Below the pieces are notes generated by a model, which had not been told where the DNA came from, searched no databases, and saw only the letters and a list, made by a program, of their open reading frames with translations. From a virus (lineage: Duplodnaviria; Heunggongvirae; Uroviricota; Caudoviricetes): 51,197 bases of DNA. The translations under genes were made by a program, and so were the position numbers. The stretch spans positions 64,001 through 115,197 of IMG/VR virus record IMGVR_UViG_3300005323_000039; one strand, 5' to 3'. Positions 4,531-35,320 of the stretch are shown one piece after another (position 1 is the first letter of the stretch; every line of letters starts with the position of its first letter).

Positions 4531-4603
4531 TGCGCTCGGAGAGATTCGAACTCTCGCCACCTGCTCGGCAAGCAGATATTCTACCAGACTATATTACGAG
4601 CGC
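4531..4603 (-). tRNA. tRNA-Gly(GCC)
   Basis: Acceptor GCGCTCG/CGAGCGC-A, anticodon arm TCTGC-TTGCCGA-GCAGG, T-arm GAGAG-TTCGAAT-CTCTC; CCA not encoded. Confidence 0.95.
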
Positions 4604-4627
4604 GCCAATTTACGCAAATTCTGTGAA

Positions 4628-4700
4628 TAGTCCTGCGAGGATTCGAACCTCGGTTGCTGAGTTCAAAGCCCAGTGTGATTGACCGCTACACTACAGGACT
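4628..4700 (-). tRNA. tRNA-Gln(TTG), archaeal type
   Basis: AGTCCTG/CAGGACT-A acceptor with A1-U72; anticodon arm CTGGG-CTTTGAA-CTCAG; T-arm CGAGG-TTCGAAT-CCTCG. Confidence 0.95.
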
Positions 4701-4713
4701 AATTGTTGTTAGT

Positions 4714-4929
4714 CTAATCATATAACACGATTGTTTCTACATTATATTTTGATACAAGGATTGTAAATGTCTCAATTGATTTAGTAATAGGATTTTCATA
4801 AGAACGTTCCACGATAAACATATCATGATCATCAATTGTTTTTGACCCTTTGTAAATTCCACATACTTCTTCACCAGATACCAATCCAAAGCAATATGAT
4901 TTTCCCCTTTCTAATTCATCTTTTGTCAT
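4714..4929 (-). CDS. hypothetical protein inside the tRNA cluster
   Basis: 71 aa, GAGGT ribosome-binding site upstream. Confidence 0.6.
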   Translation of the reverse strand: MTKDELERGKSYCFGLVSGEEVCGIYKGSKTIDDHDMFIVERSYENPITKSIETFTILVSKYNVETIVLYD

Positions 4930-4952
4930 GTCGTACCTCTTGTTAAGTTGAA

Positions 4953-5073
4953 AGAGTGGGCCAGATTTGCACTGGTCCGTGTACTTTGTTTTCTACCGTT
5001 TGTTTGAAACAAACGATCTATCACGCCCATGCTGCCTAGCTTTATGGGAATCGAACCCTGGACGCCACCACTC
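4953..5073 (-). ncRNA. tRNA-like RNA (acceptor-like stem and T-arm around a non-tRNA core)
   Basis: GAGTGG/CCACTC closing stem, T-arm CCAG-TGCAAAT-CTGG, internal CCCAT/ATGGG and CGTTTGTT/AACAAACG hairpins; no canonical anticodon arm. Confidence 0.5.
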
Positions 5074-5145
5074 AGCCTTCGTACCACCAGATACAGTCCA
5101 AAAGGGAGCGACCCTTTCATACCTTCGTATCCAATATGTGCGAAA

Positions 5146-5229
5146 TGCCAACAGCAGGGCTCGAACCTGCGACCCTCTACGGGACCAGATCTTGAGTCTG
5201 GCGCGTTCTTCCATCTTCGCTATGTTGGC
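5146..5229 (-). tRNA. tRNA-Leu(CAA)
   Basis: GCCAACA/TGTTGGC-A acceptor, CCAGA-CTCAAGA-TCTGG anticodon arm, long variable arm, T-arm GCAGG-TTCGAGC-CCTGC; BRE-TATA at about 5258-5275. Confidence 0.95.
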
Positions 5230-5239
5230 TTCACTCTAG

Positions 5240-5881
5240 TTATACATATAACGAATCTACTATATATACTTTGTTGTTTTCAATCATAGCGTATCTGAAT
5301 CGCGATTTGCTTACATCCAAAGGATTGTACGGATCTACCATGTACAGATTGCTCAAATCATGACTGGAGTATTTGAATAGGGGTGGAGTGTGGCCACAGA
5401 CTTGCAACAATTTGTCATACGGGGCAGCATGGTTCGGTCTATACCACAGAGGACTGTCGTCGTGCCAATGTTCTATCAGATCCATTCCATTCAGAGTTTT
5501 TACAATTTCTTCGATTGGAGTATCGCTTGGAACAAATGTTTCAGATAAACCAGCGTGCGTTATGAGGACTTGATCATGTATAGCGACTATTTTGAATTCA
5601 TTCTGGCGCTCCTCCAATTCATCGTACAGACTCCAGCTATATGGGTCCTGAGGCCCGATAAATTGTTTTAAGACTATAGCAGCTTCGTGATTGCCCCACA
5701 ACATTTCTGCTCCACTCTGACTCAATAGTTTCCAACACTCTATTGGGTTGCATCCAATATCGATAAAATCTCCAGCAAAAATCAATCTGTCGTTGTGTTT
5801 ATCGTAATGTGAATGTGATAGAACGTTCTGGATGAGGTGAGGTTGAGCGTGTGCATCAGCTAAAACAATACAACGTGCCAT
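5240..5881 (-). CDS. calcineurin-like metallophosphoesterase
   Basis: DAH, GDFID, GNHE, THAG and GHTP motifs. Confidence 0.9.
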   Translation of the reverse strand: MARCIVLADAHAQPHLIQNVLSHSHYDKHNDRLIFAGDFIDIGCNPIECWKLLSQSGAEMLWGNHEAAIVLKQFIGPQDPYSWSLYDELEERQNEFKIVAIHDQVLITHAGLSETFVPSDTPIEEIVKTLNGMDLIEHWHDDSPLWYRPNHAAPYDKLLQVCGHTPPLFKYSSHDLSNLYMVDPYNPLDVSKSRFRYAMIENNKVYIVDSLYV

Positions 5882-5887
5882 CTTAAC

Positions 5888-6136
5888 CTACTCTATAGAC
5901 GTATCGTTTATTGCCTTCAATATGAACGATTCAGGTGCATCTTCTCCGTAAAAATGGACCAATACTTCGTCATCTGCTAACATTTCATCAGATTCGTATA
6001 CGCGAGTGTATCCTCCGTCACGATTTGGTCCTATCAATCTATAGTTAAGATTCTTTCTACCAGTTCGTATTATTTCGACACCATCTGAATTATCAATAAC
6101 ATCTAATTGCTCATCTGTTATTATGTAACGTTCCAT
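5888..6136 (-). CDS. hypothetical protein
   Basis: 82 aa, GGTGA ribosome-binding site, co-oriented with neighbours. Confidence 0.6.
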   Translation of the reverse strand: MERYIITDEQLDVIDNSDGVEIIRTGRKNLNYRLIGPNRDGGYTRVYESDEMLADDEVLVHFYGEDAPESFILKAINDTSIE

Positions 6137-6297: not shown

Positions 6298-6321
6298 TAC
6301 TAAAAATAAATGGATAGGTTA

Positions 6322-6401
6322 GAACCTTGCCTCACCTCGCCATACCACACCGTATCGAACCTATCCGAACCGAACCCAAACAAACCCAGTCGAACCACAT
6401 C
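6322..6401 (-). ncRNA. stand-alone GGY-NN pentamer array (array A; candidate guide RNA)
   Basis: 16 in-phase 5-nt units, 11 with GGY: gatGT ggtTC gacTG ggtTT gttTG ggtTC ggtTC ggaTA ggtTC gatAC ggtGT ggtAT ggcGA ggtGA ggcAA ggtTC; own promoter and T-tract. Confidence 0.85.
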
Positions 6402-6450
6402 TAATGTGCGTTAAGATATACTCAACGCTAATTCGTAATGGTATTTTTTC

Positions 6451-6466
6451 TATTTATACTTTTCGG
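6451..6466 (-). promoter_or_regulatory. archaeal BRE-TATA promoter for array A
   Basis: CCGAAAAGTATAAATA; no sizeable minus-strand ORF between it and the array. Confidence 0.7.
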
Positions 6467-6476
6467 TGGCAACTAG

Positions 6477-7031
6477 ATGACTCTGATAAAATTGACTGCT
6501 TATAATGCATGGCGTCGTGGATTCATAACCGATGACCAATATGAAGTTTATCTTCAGCAAAATCCAGATCCAGAACAAGAAATTATAATAAATTACGATG
6601 AACATTTGCACGAAGTTTATCTTGCTGACGTACATGTGCTCAAACGAGATCCTAATGCTTATATCGACTTAGTTTTTTCACTTGACGGAGCTGGTGCAGA
6701 AATAGCTGACGCAAAGAAAGCATATGCCAGATGTAACGTTAGTGGTAGGATTATTAAAGCAACTGTTCTAGCGGATCAATCAGGTTCAATCGCAATTGAT
6801 GTCTGGAAGAAGACTACATATCCTCCAGCGGATGGCGAATCAATTACAGCAAGCGCCGTTCCAACAATCACAACCAACGTTAGTTCAGAGGATGCAACAT
6901 TGACAGGCTGGAACGTAATGGTCACAGCTGGAGATTACTTCATTGCTAACGTCGATTCTTGTACAACAATAACACATGCTGAACTCATTCTAACGATTGA
7001 ACCTGCTGTACAATATGTCCGGATCGTTTAG
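6477..7031 (+). CDS. virion protein (N-terminal RRGxIT module plus beta-sandwich)
   Basis: C-terminal domain paralogous to 7046-7864 (ADQSGSI..D.WK...YPP....SITA.AVPTI). Confidence 0.65.
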   Translation: MTLIKLTAYNAWRRGFITDDQYEVYLQQNPDPEQEIIINYDEHLHEVYLADVHVLKRDPNAYIDLVFSLDGAGAEIADAKKAYARCNVSGRIIKATVLADQSGSIAIDVWKKTTYPPADGESITASAVPTITTNVSSEDATLTGWNVMVTAGDYFIANVDSCTTITHAELILTIEPAVQYVRIV

Positions 7032-7045
7032 AGGGAGCGTACTTT

Positions 7046-7864
7046 ATGGCTAACATTAGCGCGATGAGCTTGAGTAGAGGTGACATCCTTACAACTTCTC
7101 ACATTGACTCAATTGCTAGAGGCTCCCAAGATATTGGTGTAAGGGACGGTTGTAATGTTGGAGCGCAAGCAGTTCCTGACATGACCGTCAAACTGGACGC
7201 AGGCAATGTACTAATTGGAGGCGTTCTAAAAGTTGTTGCAGGCAATAACGTTACAATTTCTGCTGCAGACCCTACAAACCCTCGTATCGATATAATCTAT
7301 GTAGATGTGAATGGAGTGGGGCAAGTGTATACTGGAGCAGCGGGAGTTATTGCACCTGTTGGAGAAACGGACTGGAAGAAATTTACTGTACCGTATCCTG
7401 GGGCGACAATACCCACAGGTGTCCCTCTTGCAGAAGTTCATGTTGGAGCGGGAGCAACTTCAATCACCGGAGCGAATGTTAGATCGCTTGCCACCTACGT
7501 TAGAACGTATCGGCGTCAAATCCAAGTCATAATTGACGGAGGTGGAGTTGCCATTGAGACGGGAGTGAAAGCGCGCCTCCACATGGGATACCCTTGTACG
7601 ATTAAGAGTGTGACTATGGGAGCGGACCAATCAGGCTCCATTGTAGTGGACATCTGGAAAGATACGTATGCGAATTACCCCCCAACGGACGCAGATTCGA
7701 TAACAGCAGCAGCAGTTCCAACGATATCCGCGACAAACAAATATCAGAATACTACGTTGGTTGGCTGGACAACGTCCATTACCGCAGACGACTGGCTATT
7801 CTTCAATGTAGATAGTTGTTCGTCGATTACTCAGTGCGTTGTAGACCTCATCGTGGAAACTTAA
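7046..7864 (+). CDS. virion/tail-associated protein
   Basis: AAD..NPRIDII motif and DGGG..I.TG.K...ADQSGSIVVDIWKD domain typical of phage virion proteins. Confidence 0.7.
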   Translation: MANISAMSLSRGDILTTSHIDSIARGSQDIGVRDGCNVGAQAVPDMTVKLDAGNVLIGGVLKVVAGNNVTISAADPTNPRIDIIYVDVNGVGQVYTGAAGVIAPVGETDWKKFTVPYPGATIPTGVPLAEVHVGAGATSITGANVRSLATYVRTYRRQIQVIIDGGGVAIETGVKARLHMGYPCTIKSVTMGADQSGSIVVDIWKDTYANYPPTDADSITAAAVPTISATNKYQNTTLVGWTTSITADDWLFFNVDSCSSITQCVVDLIVET

Positions 7865-24781: not shown

Positions 24782-24841
24782 ATATCAAATTTCATCGTAT
24801 CCCGACGTATCTGATCCCATCTTATCTAATCAGAACGCATG
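24782..24841 (-). ncRNA. GAT-NN pentamer array C2
   Basis: 12 units, 8 GAT: catGC gttCT gatTA gatAA gatGG gatCA gatAC gtcGG gatAC gatGA aatTT gatAT. Confidence 0.8.
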
Positions 24842-24901
24842 ACTCCACTACTCGGAGTCTAAGTTGGATATGAGGTATGAATTCAATATCCAACACACTG
24901 C

Positions 24902-24966
24902 GCATCGCATCAAATTATATCCCATCTTATCTAATCAAATCACGTTTCATCTCATCTCGTCGCATA
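24902..24966 (-). ncRNA. GAT-NN pentamer array C1
   Basis: 13 units, 9 GAT: tatGC gacGA gatGA gatGA aacGT gatTT gatTA gatAA gatGG gatAT aatTT gatGC gatGC. Confidence 0.8.
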
Positions 24967-24983
24967 AATGTCAAATATTAAAT

Positions 24984-25253
24984 TTATTCCTCGATGATTT
25001 CTCCATACCATTCTTTGGGCGCTTTTGATCGTAACTCACTATAAAAGTTTGTAAGATCGGCACGAATTTGCTTTAATACAACAGATGTCAATTGTTCGAT
25101 AATGCCTGGTATATTATGATCATCTGTTACATGTTCTTCGTATATGTTGGTCAATTCTTCTATTTTGAGACCAATTTCACGCAATTTTGATAATTCATCT
25201 CGACTTATTTCAATACTGGATGTCATTGTAACACCTGAAATATGAGCAATCAA
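24984..25253 (-). CDS. small helical accessory protein of the RAMP operon
   Basis: 89 aa, translationally coupled to 25254-25757. Confidence 0.6.
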   Translation of the reverse strand: MIAHISGVTMTSSIEISRDELSKLREIGLKIEELTNIYEEHVTDDHNIPGIIEQLTSVVLKQIRADLTNFYSELRSKAPKEWYGEIIEE

Positions 25254-25757
25254 TCATTCGAATTTTGGTTTAATTGGTACTGAACTTACACCACTTTCAT
25301 GTCTACCAGACTTAGGAGATCGTAATGAATCGTACATTGTTTTTACAGTTCCAAGCATTCCACGTCTGACAGACAACTGTGCTCTGTCGGATTCCGGCAT
25401 CAAGTGTTCGATTCTGGACGCAATATTGCACGCTCTGAATCCTCTATCAGCGGCTCTGGCTGCCCTTGACCATTTGTTGTTTACGATGATTGTGGCATTT
25501 TTGCCACCAATCAATTCTATGCCATCTCCTTTGTAGCAATGATACTCGATTTCCATTTTGTACAATACACGACGCATTAAATCTTTTCCATCAGTATCCA
25601 TAACGATTTCAGTGTCGTTTTCGATTTGCTTGTACGATAGGAATTTGCCCATAGGCTTATCTGAAAAATATGTATGGAGTTTGACGTATTCCGCTGAAGG
25701 CATACGTCCTTTGCTCGTTTTTGATTTTTTAGATTTGGTCACTTTTTCACCAACCAA
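25254..25757 (-). CDS. basic accessory protein, possible winged-helix DNA binder
   Basis: Overlaps the RAMP gene stop; GKFLSYKQIENDT...LMRRVL..MEIEY.C..G.GIEL pattern. Confidence 0.55.
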   Translation of the reverse strand: MVGEKVTKSKKSKTSKGRMPSAEYVKLHTYFSDKPMGKFLSYKQIENDTEIVMDTDGKDLMRRVLYKMEIEYHCYKGDGIELIGGKNATIIVNNKWSRAARAADRGFRACNIASRIEHLMPESDRAQLSVRRGMLGTVKTMYDSLRSPKSGRHESGVSSVPIKPKFE

Positions 25758-26302
25758 TTAACGTTTTTGACAGAGAATCTTCCGAACCATCCACGTCTTT
25801 CTGGTCGAAACATTCCAATTCCAATAAACATACCACTAGTTTTGAGATGTTCGATGAAAACATCGCGTGTTATGACTTCATCGAATATGTTGTAGCGAAC
25901 TGTACCTTGCCATTTATCCACAACAGGAAAACATCTATATACTCGGGTGCTTCCACCGACCTTACCATCTGCAGGTACATAAAGCCAATTTGGACGCAAT
26001 CCATCCTTTTTCATGGGAAGTACCAGAGGATCTACGACCATTATTGCTGCATCGAACTTCTTCTTGAATGTTTTGTTTCGCTCACCGGGAACCTTCTTGC
26101 TCATGTATCCTGCAGCACCTTTGATCGAATTAGAAAACATTTCGGGTGGTATTATTACATTACCGTCGGAATCGTAGTGTGCACGATCTTGCCAATGAGT
26201 TTGTTCCCACTCTTCGAATGGCTTTGTTGCGTTCCCTGCATATTTTCCAAACTGCAAAGGTGTTGTACCTTCCAACAAACATTCAGCTATTATTTCTATC
26301 AT
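25739..26302 (-). CDS. Cas7/RAMP-like protein 2 (Vipr-like), linked to GAT-NN arrays
   Basis: N-terminal LEGTTPL strand, VIIPPEMFSNSIKGAA helix, C-terminal Gly loop GMFIGIGMFRPERRGWFGRFSV; alignable to 32831-33397. Confidence 0.75.
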   Translation of the reverse strand: MIEIIAECLLEGTTPLQFGKYAGNATKPFEEWEQTHWQDRAHYDSDGNVIIPPEMFSNSIKGAAGYMSKKVPGERNKTFKKKFDAAIMVVDPLVLPMKKDGLRPNWLYVPADGKVGGSTRVYRCFPVVDKWQGTVRYNIFDEVITRDVFIEHLKTSGMFIGIGMFRPERRGWFGRFSVKNVNWLVKK

Positions 26303-26313
26303 GTAAATACCTC

Positions 26314-26388
26314 ATGTCTTGACTCAAATGGTCGTATCGCATCCAATCAAATCCAATTCTATCATATCGCATTTTATATGATCGCATC
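26314..26388 (-). ncRNA. GAT-NN pentamer array D in the leader of RAMP gene 2
   Basis: 12 core units (8 GAT) gatGC gatCA tatAA aatGC gatAT gatAG aatTG gatTT gatTG gatGC gatAC gacCA plus 3 degenerate units ending at the GAGGT ribosome-binding site. Confidence 0.8.
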
Positions 26389-31146: not shown

Positions 31147-31620
31147 ATGTACGTTTATAGTATTTCTAGTGGAGAGGGTGGAGACCTCCTCACAAATATG
31201 TCAATGGGAGCGGGCAGAGTTAGGTGTCACAGCAACTTGGACTTAGTAACCACCCTTACCGGAGATATTGCCATTACTCCAGATGATGTTACAAACTATC
31301 GTCAACGGTTGTTTATGTGGCTAGCGACGCCCAAAGGCGAACGAATTGACCCTTCAGTAGGTTGTTGTTTATACGATTTTTTACATAACAAAGCAACGTC
31401 AACTACAGCGAGAACATTGGAATTGTATCTAGCATCAGACCTAGCAGTTGCATTTCCTGAATTGGATGTTAAGAGTGTACGTTGCAAGCTCTCCAGTGAC
31501 AATAGGACTTTTAGCGTGGACGTCAAATTAGGTGACGAATCATTAACGTTCCTTTTTAGTGATAACGATTTGCTTAATATTAGCTCACAGTTGGCCGAAG
31601 TTTACTCGATTACAGGGTAA
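31147..31620 (+). CDS. baseplate wedge gp25/gpW-like protein
   Basis: RQRLFMWLATPKGERIDPSVGC.L motif. Confidence 0.85.
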   Translation: MYVYSISSGEGGDLLTNMSMGAGRVRCHSNLDLVTTLTGDIAITPDDVTNYRQRLFMWLATPKGERIDPSVGCCLYDFLHNKATSTTARTLELYLASDLAVAFPELDVKSVRCKLSSDNRTFSVDVKLGDESLTFLFSDNDLLNISSQLAEVYSITG

Positions 31621-31637
31621 AAAGTGGAAAAATGGAG

Positions 31638-32015
31638 TTAGTGAGCAACTTGAGCCGCAGCTGCTAATATTTTGTTGATAACAACGTATTCGGGAGCGAG
31701 TATGGCAAGCATTGGGTCGTGTAAAGTTGACCATACAATTGATGCTATAATGGCATATGCAAAAAACGATCCAATGATACCAATGAATATTGCAATTATT
31801 GCAAAATCTCCATCATTTTCGCCTTCTTTCCACAGCCATTGCCACAAATATTTAACGGCAATTAACGTTATGACTAAAGACAAAGCGTTACAAGCAAGAC
31901 TAGCTGCTCCGTCCATTGCTGTGCCTCGAACGGCCACCTCATACGAATAGAGGGAGGCGTTCTGAGCTCCATTCAACAATCCGTTGAGTAATTCTAACTC
32001 CTGAGGATTCAACAT
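31638..32015 (-). CDS. membrane protein
   Basis: Two hydrophobic helices, LLAPEY-like end. Confidence 0.6.
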   Translation of the reverse strand: MLNPQELELLNGLLNGAQNASLYSYEVAVRGTAMDGAASLACNALSLVITLIAVKYLWQWLWKEGENDGDFAIIAIFIGIIGSFFAYAIIASIVWSTLHDPMLAILAPEYVVINKILAAAAQVAH

Positions 32016-32043
32016 ACAATCTACTCCATACTTTGTTTAACAT

Positions 32044-32724
32044 CTAACGATGGCAGTCAACCACGACTAATATGTCATCTGGTCTGCACGTCATGACTAA
32101 CTGGTAAAATTCTGACTGCCATTGTTCTTCTGGCTTGTACTCACCATGATGCCAGTTCTCGTGCCATACTCCACCCTTCAATACAGCGTATGTTGGATGC
32201 ACTTTGGCAGTTCTTTGTGCATACGATTCGCATGTGTCACCTTCCTGAATTCCAGACATGTCGCGAATTGATTGTACGGCTTCGTCAGAGTCGCCATGTC
32301 GTTCGATCATTTCACACCACATATCGTACGATTTGAGACAATCTTCATAGGATCTCTGGAGCATGGAATCCCAATCGATTAGGTCGAATGGAGCAAATGA
32401 ACTCTCTACAACAACCTTTGAAGGTAACTGGTCAATAGCTACTTCATCTGAGCCATTAGACGTCAATTGGAGGTTGCGTAACACTACAACCTTCGTTATA
32501 AAGTATCCACGATATCTGCCGCCTACTTCATACTCTGCCCACTTTCCGTTCGGATTATCGTAATAGATTTCACCATCATCATCCACAATTTTGCAACTTC
32601 TGGAGTCAAGTTTTGCTTCCTCGTTGTCCATGTTTGCTCCAAGTATCTCGAAAGGATGCATAACGTCTTCCAGAGTTTGTGTGCTGCTAGCTGGAATTAT
32701 TACAAGCACTGACGTATGAGTCAT
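32044..32724 (-). CDS. conserved phage protein of unknown function
   Basis: MTH.SVLVI, NPNGKW..Y.VGGR, YAVL..G.W.E, VVVDCH motifs. Confidence 0.75.
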   Translation of the reverse strand: MTHTSVLVIIPASSTQTLEDVMHPFEILGANMDNEEAKLDSRSCKIVDDDGEIYYDNPNGKWAEYEVGGRYRGYFITKVVVLRNLQLTSNGSDEVAIDQLPSKVVVESSFAPFDLIDWDSMLQRSYEDCLKSYDMWCEMIERHGDSDEAVQSIRDMSGIQEGDTCESYAQRTAKVHPTYAVLKGGVWHENWHHGEYKPEEQWQSEFYQLVMTCRPDDILVVVDCHR

Positions 32725-32830
32725 CTGAACACCTACTGCCTCTAATACGTATTAATGCTATTTATAGTTTGTTAAAGTCATAAACAGTTTGACCAAAAGT
32801 TATAAATAATAGAACTACGTTTCAAGTACG

Positions 32831-33397
32831 GTGATTTTGTTGAACACCCTTTCGAAACGTTTTAATGTAGGAATTCGCGGCACGCGCCCTCTTGTCATGC
32901 ATTCAACTCGCGTTATGATGCAAGAGAAATCTGGTCGCGGCGACAGAATGACTGCAGAACAAGAAGTTGAATTATCCTTGTATAAGGATTCATCTGGTAG
33001 TATAGTTGTTCCATCTGAATGCATATTGGCGTGTATGAAAGCTGCAGCAAGTGACTACAAAGTTCCTGGCAAAGGCAAAAAGACATTCAAACAATACACT
33101 GATTCAGGACTCGATATCGAACCAACGATGCCAATTCTTCAATCAGACGGATACGTAACGGATTTGCGTCCTGTTGTCGTACAGAAATCCAGAATTATAA
33201 GAGCTCGCCCCAAATTCGAAAATTGGTCTGTGGAATTTACAATCGTTGTAAATGATTCACTTTGGTTAGACAGCAGTGGTGGTGGCAGAGTTATACGCGA
33301 AATACTGGAATCTGCCGGAAAGTACAAAGGCTTGTTAGAAATGAGACCAAGATTTGGTCGTTTTGAAGTCACAAAATTCGAAGAATCTCCCGACTAA
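32831..33397 (+). CDS. Cas7/RAMP-like protein 1 (Vipr-like), linked to GGY-NN arrays
   Basis: IRGTRPLVMH, LYKDSSG.IVVPSECILACMKAAA, VPGKGKKTFK, RIIRARPKF.NW, AGKYKGLLEMRPRFGRFEV Gly loop; BRE-TATA at about 32792-32808. Confidence 0.8.
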   Translation: MILLNTLSKRFNVGIRGTRPLVMHSTRVMMQEKSGRGDRMTAEQEVELSLYKDSSGSIVVPSECILACMKAAASDYKVPGKGKKTFKQYTDSGLDIEPTMPILQSDGYVTDLRPVVVQKSRIIRARPKFENWSVEFTIVVNDSLWLDSSGGGRVIREILESAGKYKGLLEMRPRFGRFEVTKFEESPD

Positions 33398-33415
33398 AGG
33401 AGATCTAATCATTCT

Positions 33416-33440
33416 GGTTCGGTTTGGTAAGGTATGGCTT
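33416..33440 (+). repeat. short GGY-NN array B0 (5 units)
   Basis: ggtTC ggtTT ggtAA ggtAT ggcTT, 18 nt after the RAMP stop; contains the ATG of the next ORF. Confidence 0.8.
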
Positions 33441-33748
33441 CATTAGTCAGATGTTGTGAACCGACATCTCTAGAATTGATTGTTCGCGAGGCATTGAAGT
33501 CTCGCAACATTCAATTTTTGGAGCAAGTTCCCACGAGGTCTGGATTTGTGTTAGATTTTCTTGTTGGAGAACATCTAGTGATTGAAGTTGACGGTCCTTG
33601 CCATGACAGTAGCAAGAGTCGAAAAAGGGATCGTTTTAGAGATAGAATTTTGCGAAACGAAGGATATAAAGTATACAGAATGAATTATTCCACCATAAAC
33701 AATACTCAAAACTTTAATTCAACGTTAGATTTTATCCTCTCTGCATAA
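33434..33748 (+). CDS. DUF559/Vsr-like (EDxHD-type) endonuclease
   Basis: LE.IV..AL....I.F.EQ...GF.LDFL....LVIEVDGPCH...RD..RD..L...GY.V.R. Confidence 0.85.
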   Translation: MASLVRCCEPTSLELIVREALKSRNIQFLEQVPTRSGFVLDFLVGEHLVIEVDGPCHDSSKSRKRDRFRDRILRNEGYKVYRMNYSTINNTQNFNSTLDFILSA

Positions 33749-33759
33749 GAGAGATATCC

Positions 33760-33846
33760 GGTACGTTGCGGCGTGGTAGGTTGGGGTTTGGTATGGTGAG
33801 GTTCGGTGTGTTTCGGTTCGGTGTGGTAGGGTTTTAATATAACCTT
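33760..33846 (+). ncRNA. GGY-NN pentamer array B with terminal hairpin (candidate guide RNA)
   Basis: 15 units, 12 GGY: ggtAC gttGC ggcGT ggtAG gttGG ggtTT ggtAT ggtGA ggtTC ggtGT gttTC ggtTC ggtGT ggtAG ggtTT; hairpin AGGGTT/AACCTT then T-tract. Confidence 0.88.
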
Positions 33847-33901
33847 CGTTTTCCTTTTTTCTCATATTTATTTCATTCAAATTCATTTAGGAGGATTATT
33901 T

Positions 33902-35320
33902 TTGGACATAAGATCCATCGAAACGATAAAAAATGAATTAAAAAGTTATCAAATGAGTCATCATATACGGCTGAGAGATTACAACCCTCTGAGTGTTTTG
34001 TCAGTTCTCAATGAAACGCTGGCAATACAGATTCAACTACTCGAAGAGTCCATCGATTCTGAAGTTCAATCGATAAATCCGTTGACGGCGACCGGCGAGA
34101 ATCTTGACGCCGTGATAATTGACAGACTACCCGCAGGCAGACAAGCAGGCACTCAAGCGGTCGGAACAATTACCTTCCGACGGAATTTGCCCGCAGCCGC
34201 TGTCGTGACTATTCCTACAGGTACGCAGGCCATCGCACTAGCAGACAACGGAGATTATTTGTGGTTCGAAACAACTGCTGTAGGCTCTATAGGAATAGGC
34301 GATAGTAGTGTTGTAGTGGCTGCACGCTCAATGCGTACAGGATTGAATGGCAACATTCCCGCATATTCTATCACTAGATTACCAGTGAGTATTGATGGCG
34401 TGGATTTTGTGGAAAATATTGCCAGCTATACAGGAGGCACAGATGAAGAATCCGATGATGATTTACGTGCAAGATATATATACGCTGTGCTTGTGCCTGG
34501 CCGAGCCACCCAACAACTGATCGAACAACATCTAACGGATTTGGAAACTGTACTTGAAGCCCACACATATACGCGAGCTCCAGGGGACGTTGAAATTGTT
34601 GTAGACACGACTACAGGCATTGGTTCAACTGATACGGATGTTGCTGCATGTATTGAAGAAAATATTGCGGCGGGAGTAGTTGCACGTGGTGTATTGGGCG
34701 CAAGTATATCTGGCGGAATTAATGTAGAATTGTCCGTATGTGCCGGAGGATTTTTATACGTTAGGCCAACCGTTCATATTCTAGCCGAAGAATCAATGAC
34801 AATAACTTATACAGATCACCTAGCACGGTCGCGTACAGGAACGTGTACTATTCCAGCGGGAACGATTGCAGGAAGTGCTGTAATCGCTACACTACAAGAC
34901 CCGAATGATAGAGTTGTCGAAATAAATGGAATATCCTACGTCGGGACTTCAACATACGATTTGCTCATGGGCATGGGAACATATCCTTGCTTGTACGTCA
35001 CTCCACGCATGGTATCAACAAATGTTACTGTTGCAATTGTTGATACTGCAACGCCAGAAGTTGGTCTTGCTGCTAACATAGAATCCTCTCTAACAGATTT
35101 TCTAGATGCTTATACCATTGGCGAAGATTTAGAGTATAGTGACCTCGTAAAATATATTTTTGTCGATTATGCTACAGGCAGAGCATTTGATGGCATTGAT
35201 CAGATAACTTCATGCGTCGTGACAGGCAACAGCACAACGATAAGTTCGTTCGGCCAGATTATCAATTTGGACGAAGATCAGCGCATCGAGCCTGGCAGCA
35301 TCACGATAACAATAACATAG
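33902..35320 (+). CDS. baseplate J/gp47-like protein
   Basis: ATGENLD, AGTQAVG.ITF, TG..GNIPA, GG.DEESDDDLRARY motifs. Confidence 0.92.
   Translation: MDIRSIETIKNELKSYQMSHHIRLRDYNPLSVLSVLNETLAIQIQLLEESIDSEVQSINPLTATGENLDAVIIDRLPAGRQAGTQAVGTITFRRNLPAAAVVTIPTGTQAIALADNGDYLWFETTAVGSIGIGDSSVVVAARSMRTGLNGNIPAYSITRLPVSIDGVDFVENIASYTGGTDEESDDDLRARYIYAVLVPGRATQQLIEQHLTDLETVLEAHTYTRAPGDVEIVVDTTTGIGSTDTDVAACIEENIAAGVVARGVLGASISGGINVELSVCAGGFLYVRPTVHILAEESMTITYTDHLARSRTGTCTIPAGTIAGSAVIATLQDPNDRVVEINGISYVGTSTYDLLMGMGTYPCLYVTPRMVSTNVTVAIVDTATPEVGLAANIESSLTDFLDAYTIGEDLEYSDLVKYIFVDYATGRAFDGIDQITSCVVTGNSTTISSFGQIINLDEDQRIEPGSITITIT

Follow-up and report, generated by a model that had tools for sequence, protein, structure and literature searches.

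We identified an intergenic array of five-base repeats, array A (positions 6322-6401, minus strand), as a probable solo guide RNA (vrRNA) gene of a phage's GGY-type VIPR system, directed at related phages' alleles of the neighbouring virion-type gene 6477-7031 whilst sparing the phage's own copy. We put the probability of this reading at roughly 0.7. The array lies in the window, the whole stretch of 51,197 nt that was analysed, which comprises positions 64001-115197 of the 115-kb phage contig IMGVR_UViG_3300005323_000039 (Caudoviricetes) and carries virion genes and three tRNAs. The kind of element and its decoding rule are already published, and array A adds a further VIPR case to those described.

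VIPR systems combine Vipr, an ancestral RAMP protein, with vrRNAs of 9-16 repeats, each made of a GGY triplet and two variable bases, NN (bioRxiv 10.64898/2026.04.26.720920). The NN dinucleotides read double-stranded DNA on either strand and with no protospacer-adjacent motif, skipping one base per unit, mostly at codon wobble positions; the bound system represses transcription, and disturbed NN pairing abolishes silencing (10.64898/2026.04.26.720920). Published targets are mostly satellites and prophages, defined by a working criterion of at least 80% of NN positions matched, and no self targets were found at or above 80% (10.64898/2026.04.26.720920). The same preprint placed predicted nucleases in VIPR types of host defence islands, and noted frequent internal degeneracy of the repeats (10.64898/2026.04.26.720920). 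A structural preprint describes a Vipr filament and a triplex intermediate (bioRxiv 10.64898/2026.04.26.720927), and a further one reports solo vrRNAs whose match to self is lower than their match to rival phages (bioRxiv 10.64898/2026.10.15.759431).

Array A consists of 16 GGYNN-type units, which form the repeat tract of the solo vrRNA. Eleven of the 16 triplets are strictly GGY, the remaining five being GAT, GAC, GTT or GGA, and the NN dinucleotides are varied, a make-up that falls within the published range of 9-16 units in which GGY is constant and NN varies. Scanning the full contig for GG at a period of 5 returned array A and a second array, array B, and no further GGY array. The presumed reader of such GGY-type vrRNAs is encoded 26 kb from array A, on the plus strand at 32831-33397, by a vipr gene for a 188 aa Cas7/Csm3-like RAMP protein. 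The AlphaFold (AF2) model of this protein has a pLDDT of 93.5, and its 50 best fold matches in the PDB (Foldseek) were all Csm3 or Cas7 proteins of type III and type VII complexes, with E values down to 6e-7 and TM scores of 0.5-0.6. The protein belongs to no Pfam family and falls in phrog_4652, a group of unknown function. A tblastn search with Vipr matched 129 phage records, mostly of Felixounavirus, the genus of phage SUSP1 (28% identity over 97% of the length, E 3e-9), and in phage VpaE1 the Vipr homologue is flanked by five GGYNN arrays. We also found 30 metagenomic homologues, the loci of which carry an adjoining DUF559 nuclease gene and GGYNN arrays. The cognate Vipr fold, the homology to Felixounavirus vipr and the agreement with the published VIPR description led us to assign array A as a solo vrRNA of a VIPR-positive phage.

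A sequence-only reading of this DNA, made before the present analysis, had proposed that array A decodes to its neighbouring gene. The plus-strand NN string of the array proved to be exactly as given there, and the reported match of 17/22 between that string and codon positions 1 and 2 was reproduced at 6582-6614. Aligned to all 16 guide units, the self site spans 6570-6617 on the plus strand and scores 17/32 overall, with 17/24 in 6582-6617. The site keeps the reading frame of gene 6477-7031 (offset 105), and the skipped base is thus the wobble base; pairing through NN with a skipped wobble base, which had been derived from the letters alone, is the published VIPR '1-nt skip rule'. The match of 17/22 is the sole 11-unit match of at least 17 among approximately 1.4 million placements in the 115-kb genome, and when the unit order of array A was shuffled, 0.76% of 5000 trials reached a score of at least 17 within 300 bp. 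At a target period of 3, a length-free segment score restricted to 400 bp gave p = 0.029 for array A and p = 0.007 for array B, and read-out periods of 2, 4, 5 and 6 produced no local signal for either array. In the genome-wide length-free ranking, the neighbour match of array A was among the top three segments and that of array B was the top segment for its guide. The size of each neighbour match is therefore unremarkable, while the presence of both within 300 bp of their own arrays is unlikely by chance; the permutation check suggested with the sequence-only reading found such proximity to be rare. The best scores of array A anywhere in its own genome were 17/24 over 12 units and 21/32 over the full length, both below 80%.

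Relatives of the neighbouring gene fit the guide better than the phage's own copy does. Among 5.8 billion proteins, the 184 aa product has three full-length homologues, P0032, P0033 and P0034, which are 60, 58 and 42% identical to it; P0032 was scored from DNA (metagenomic locus L006) and P0033 from its protein sequence. The contigs of P0033 and P0034 belong to JGI sample 3300075153. The best placement of the array A guide anywhere in L006 coincides with the homologous codons, where it scores 22/24 over the 12 units at the vrRNA 5' end and 24/32 overall, as compared with 17/24 and 17/32 for self. Expressed as fractions, L006 matches 92% of NN positions over 12 units, 79% over 14 and 75% over 16. 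In 20,000 unit shuffles on L006 the best 12-unit score was 20 (p < 5e-5 for 22/24), and a full-length score of at least 24 arose once. Six of the seven self mismatches within the 12-unit core carry the guide base in L006, and the seventh carries it in P0033, which scores about 20/24 against the guide; P0034 showed no match to it. The P0033 contig has just 38 nt between the upstream gene and the 184 aa homologue, a gap that leaves no room for array A. The sequence-only reading had named a rival allele of the neighbour gene as the target and had suggested looking for the matching allele in relatives that lack the array; L006 and P0033 both exceed self, and P0033, itself without array A, is such a relative. 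The sequence comparison supports the view that the guide is aimed at rival alleles of the neighbouring gene. As the relatives' alleles fit far better than the phage's own, the guide most likely acts on co-infecting relatives and spares self.

We consider it unlikely that array A is a vrRNA whose neighbour match arose by chance, its true target being an unsampled satellite, prophage or unrelated phage. Such an origin would be in keeping with published vrRNA targets, which are mostly satellites and prophages, and with the fact that the size of the 17/22 match is not significant genome-wide, two other segments being slightly higher on the length-free score; moreover, chance alone yields unrelated 22/24 cores in seeded scans of IMG/VR that force 16 positions. 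L006, however, was picked by protein homology alone, and yet it matched 22/24 at the homologous codons, a score reached in none of the 20,000 shuffles, and chance would also have to turn six of the seven self mismatches into the guide base in that allele.

The same adjacency is seen for two further guides, array B and the fourth vrRNA of metagenomic locus L005, and as all three matches are in frame, this too argues against chance. Array B (33760-33834, plus strand) is the 15-unit vrRNA that belongs to the vipr cassette itself, and lies just upstream of the baseplate J gene (33902-35320). Its self site in that gene, at 34061-34090 on the plus strand, scores 16/20 in frame. In L005, an IMG/VR locus whose Vipr is 55% identical, the gene order is vipr, two vrRNAs, the DUF559 nuclease gene, two more vrRNAs and a portal gene. 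The last (fourth) of these vrRNAs matches portal codons 11-27, in frame and approximately 120 nt from the array, with 22/34 overall and 20/24 in the core (contig-wide shuffle p 0.002). In four portal relatives that lack the cassette, the best placement of this guide falls at the same codons, with scores of 21-23/34, and these relatives hold the guide base at two positions where L005 differs from it (CGN versus AGG for arginine, and Glu versus Gln). The seven other vrRNAs, namely four of locus L001 and three of the four in L005, gave no significant match on their own contigs.

Partial matches to the adjacent gene could also mean that the guide is directed at the phage's own copy, the imperfect match serving as weak, tunable repression that times virion-gene expression. 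Array A, array B and the fourth L005 vrRNA all show a partial match to the adjacent gene of their own genome, close to the 5' end of that gene, array B fits self better than it fits two distant J homologues, and bound VIPR represses transcription. Self-regulation, however, offers no reason for mismatch, and yet of three alleles it is self that array A fits least well; the preprints report that disturbed NN pairing abolishes silencing and describe no self matches at or above 80%, and an associated nuclease would make self-binding dangerous. On balance we give little credence to self-regulation.

Several points weigh against our reading of array A as a guide to rival alleles. The self match over all 16 units is just 17/32, and five of the 16 triplets depart from GGY. 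Two informative homologues were available, one of which (P0033) was scored from protein. None of the three known alleles fits the four units next to the 3' tail, which leaves L006, at 75% overall, under the 80% criterion of the preprint, and we found no allele that agrees with the guide over all 16 units. Scans for a perfect target with the 12-unit pattern, and with a version degenerate at two positions, returned none in IMG/VR or in GTDB genomes, and an 8-unit seed scan returned 19 unrelated chance loci. The N-terminal part of the 184 aa protein has no relative in IMG/VR and one distant relative in JGI metagenomes. The available J homologues (44-49% identical) match array B worse than self does; for array B, therefore, the data support adjacency alone, and the argument from alleles holds for array A only. 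Finally, the promoter evidence for vrRNA A is weak.

If array A is a solo vrRNA, its action may be pictured as follows. The vrRNA, which we infer to be made and loaded, would be transcribed from the minus strand and coated by the 188 aa Vipr, each protomer holding one GGY triplet and exposing the next two bases. By analogy with the published systems, the exposed dinucleotides would then read duplex DNA, each unit passing over one base. The guide appears to be written against the coding strand of the neighbouring gene family, and the bases passed over are wobble positions. For the filament, the skip rule and silencing as the outcome we rely on the preprints; the array, the fold of Vipr and its homology, the match at period 3, the closer fit of a homologue and the lack of a self target at or above 80% come from the present analysis. 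We infer that the bound target would be either silenced or cut.

Array A sits between divergent genes, an 82 aa open reading frame (ORF) on the minus strand and the 184 aa virion-type gene on the plus strand (6477-7031), whose alleles are the predicted aim of the guide and whose C-terminal domain belongs to phrog_35197, a virion structural protein. A few bases upstream of the repeats is an 8-bp stem-loop (6408-6428, minus strand; -10.7 kcal/mol, z -4.2), and none of 200 shuffles was as stable. A stem-loop of 6-8 bp lies 6-10 nt 5' of nearly every array in this clade (6408-6428 and 33737-33753 in the window, and the arrays of L005 and L001), and this conserved structure may mark a site of processing or act as a 5' handle. 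Further upstream, a promoter-like site (6443-6472, minus strand), a weak sigma-70 match by consensus with an A/T-rich TATAAATA box inside, could drive vrRNA A. The 3' tail (6300-6321, minus strand) has a TAACC motif paired with the final repeat units and, after it, a U-rich stretch; the last L005 vrRNA has a similar tail, and the tail of array A folds no better than shuffles.

The divergent intergenic location and the several degenerate triplets would also suit a DNA repeat with a structural or regulatory role, for example a protein site at divergent promoters or a recombination hotspot, in place of a guide RNA. We regard this as very improbable, given that array A shares its unit, length and 5' stem-loop, and a similar 3' tail, with the arrays of bona fide vipr cassettes, that the cognate vipr gene is present in the same genome, and that the NN register runs on through the degenerate triplets and stays in frame with a homologous gene. 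Once the Cas7-like partner protein and the VIPR preprints had come to light, we also dropped a TRAP-like or CsrA-like RNA-binding site, a G-quadruplex tract and iterons as identities for the array. Rfam at gathering thresholds detected the three tRNAs and nothing else, and a blastn search of both array loci against 50,697 phage records gave zero matches.

The 184 aa gene and the next gene (272 aa), at 6477-7864 of the window, have the phrog_35197 C-terminal domain in common. This domain is very widespread in metagenomic phages (>250 matches), and the guide site falls in the N-terminal part of the 184 aa protein, which is restricted to few relatives. Beyond array A, on the minus strand at 4531-5229, are a tRNA cluster (Gly-GCC, Gln-TTG and Leu-CAA) and a metallophosphatase gene; the P0033 relative has a different gene order upstream of its 184 aa gene.

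In addition to the solo array, we examined the vipr cassette itself. Its accessory gene (33434-33748, plus strand), a neighbour of vipr conserved in four loci, encodes a bare DUF559/EDxHD (Vsr-like) nuclease domain of 104 aa that matches Pfam DUF559 at 6e-10 and has conserved E-x-D-G ... H and DRFRD motifs. A profile of the four cassette DUF559 proteins matched the catalytic domain of I-Bth0305I (PDB 3R3P) end to end (residues 10-99, E 1.9e-11); the cassette nuclease is without a DNA-binding domain. The gene beside the cassette differs from phage to phage, being baseplate J in the window, portal in L005, an intein-bearing DNA polymerase III alpha gene in L001 and a PKD/peptidase gene in L002. 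In L005 the cassette occupies 1.65 kb between a 90 aa ORF and the portal gene, and four relatives join those genes within approximately 60 nt. In the window, the approximately 2.3 kb between a 157 aa baseplate gene and J (31620-33902) comprise two minus-strand ORFs, vipr, the DUF559 gene and array B; in relatives L009 and L011 the cassette is absent and the baseplate gene is joined directly to J. The cassette is thus a discrete insertion whose presence is polymorphic between conserved neighbours. A vipr cassette that carries a bare EDxHD nuclease domain and is absent from relatives may be new, as may the finding that in two phages (the window and L005) the last cassette guide part-matches the gene beside the insertion.

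The presence and absence of the cassette, the adjacent part-matches and the EDxHD nuclease suggest homing or marker exclusion, as the sequence-only reading had proposed, and we tentatively raise the possibility, which we hold to be less probable than not, that vipr, the EDxHD nuclease and the vrRNAs together form an RNA-guided homing or marker-exclusion element. In such an element, the Vipr-vrRNA filament would supply the DNA recognition that the bare nuclease lacks, and the gene adjoining the insertion, baseplate J here and portal in L005, would be cut in its cassette-free alleles. Recombinational repair would then carry over to the rival phage either the cassette or a solo guide of the array A kind, together with the resistant flanking allele. 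Homing of this kind would account for guides sitting beside the genes that they police.

The cassettes show some further features. Between vipr and the DUF559 gene of the window is a five-unit GGYNN mini-array (33416-33440) with its own stem-loop upstream, and the DUF559 start codon lies at the edge of the mini-array. In L001 (6001-11830), four vrRNAs are packed between vipr and the DUF559 gene, and the cassette is directly upstream of a DNA polymerase III alpha gene with a uracil-DNA glycosylase (UDG) domain and a LAGLIDADG intein, which brings two kinds of selfish element together at one gene. The relative L009, whose J protein is 44% identical, encodes an eRF1/aRF1-type release factor (5222-6136), a hint that phages of this group infect archaea or recode stop codons.

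As well as the GGY-type system, the window contains a second, paralogous VIPR-like locus on the minus strand (24782-26388). Its 187 aa Vipr paralogue (25739-26302, minus strand) is 29% identical to the first Vipr and likewise belongs to phrog_4652, and two accessory ORFs (167 and 89 aa) fall in no family. The fixed triplet of its arrays (26329-26388, 24902-24961 and 24782-24831) is GAT rather than GGY, which indicates that one phage has two Vipr proteins of different triplet specificities; the text of the VIPR preprint names only the variants NNNGG, YNNNG and NNNNG (bioRxiv 10.64898/2026.04.26.720920). The GAT-type arrays D, C1 and C2 gave no period-3 match above chance to a neighbour or to the genome. 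A period-5 signal of array C1 was rejected as a read-out, being explained by the partial duplicate C2.

VIPR is a discovery of recent months, and most of what is known of its natural biology comes from a single coliphage family and the satellite of that family. At the array A locus, the likely target can be named from position, as the rival allele of the adjacent virion gene, with the phage's own allele bearing apparent escape changes. The cassettes additionally link vipr to the catalytic domain of a homing endonuclease, in mobile insertions beside essential phage genes. Were these cassettes to home, they would be the first RNA-programmed homing endonucleases; nuclease-coupled VIPR would then act inside viruses, beyond the host defence islands of the preprint, with a bearing on the proposed route from VIPR to CRISPR. 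The texts of the three VIPR preprints, the supplementary type tables of the first preprint lying outside this search, contain no mention of homing, DUF559 or adjacent-allele targeting.

Amongst known systems, the closest to ours is type II VIPR, described from Escherichia phage SUSP1 and a Pseudomonas fulva prophage. Both have a Cas7-like RAMP of approximately 20 kDa and 9-16 pentanucleotide units of GGY and NN, both skip one base at the wobble position, and both are phage-borne, aimed at competing mobile elements and free of self targets at or above 80%. The accessory protein here is a bare EDxHD/DUF559 nuclease domain, whereas the SUSP1 type has the DNA-binding vap1, and the nuclease is found in a virus rather than in the host defence islands that hold the nuclease types of the VIPR preprint. 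Type II vrRNAs have a conserved structure in the 3' tail; here a short stem-loop precedes the arrays, and no pseudoknot tail was seen. Published VIPR targets are regulators of satellites and prophages, while the target predicted here is an allele of the gene beside the guide.

Like the solo vrRNAs of SUSP1-family phages and F5 satellites, array A is far from vipr (26 kb here) and matches self less well than relatives, which avoids autoimmunity. Those published examples occur in vipr-null phages and satellites and target vipr genes, other vrRNAs, satellites or host repeats; array A, in contrast, belongs to a vipr-positive phage and lies beside the phage's own copy of the targeted virion gene. 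The cassette resembles the free-standing EDxHD homing endonuclease I-Bth0305I in being a discrete insertion beside conserved essential phage genes that is absent from relatives, and, as in elements of that type, the recognized site is in the adjacent gene and the host allele differs there. Unlike I-Bth0305I, the cassette nuclease lacks a DNA-binding domain, and recognition would come from an RNA-protein filament. Lastly, Vipr shares with the Cas7/Csm3 filaments of class 1 CRISPR its protein fold, one protomer per guide repeat and a periodic interruption of pairing, and differs from them in having a period of 5 rather than 6, two bases read per unit, and no CRISPR array, Cas1/Cas2 or Cas5/Cas6 partners.
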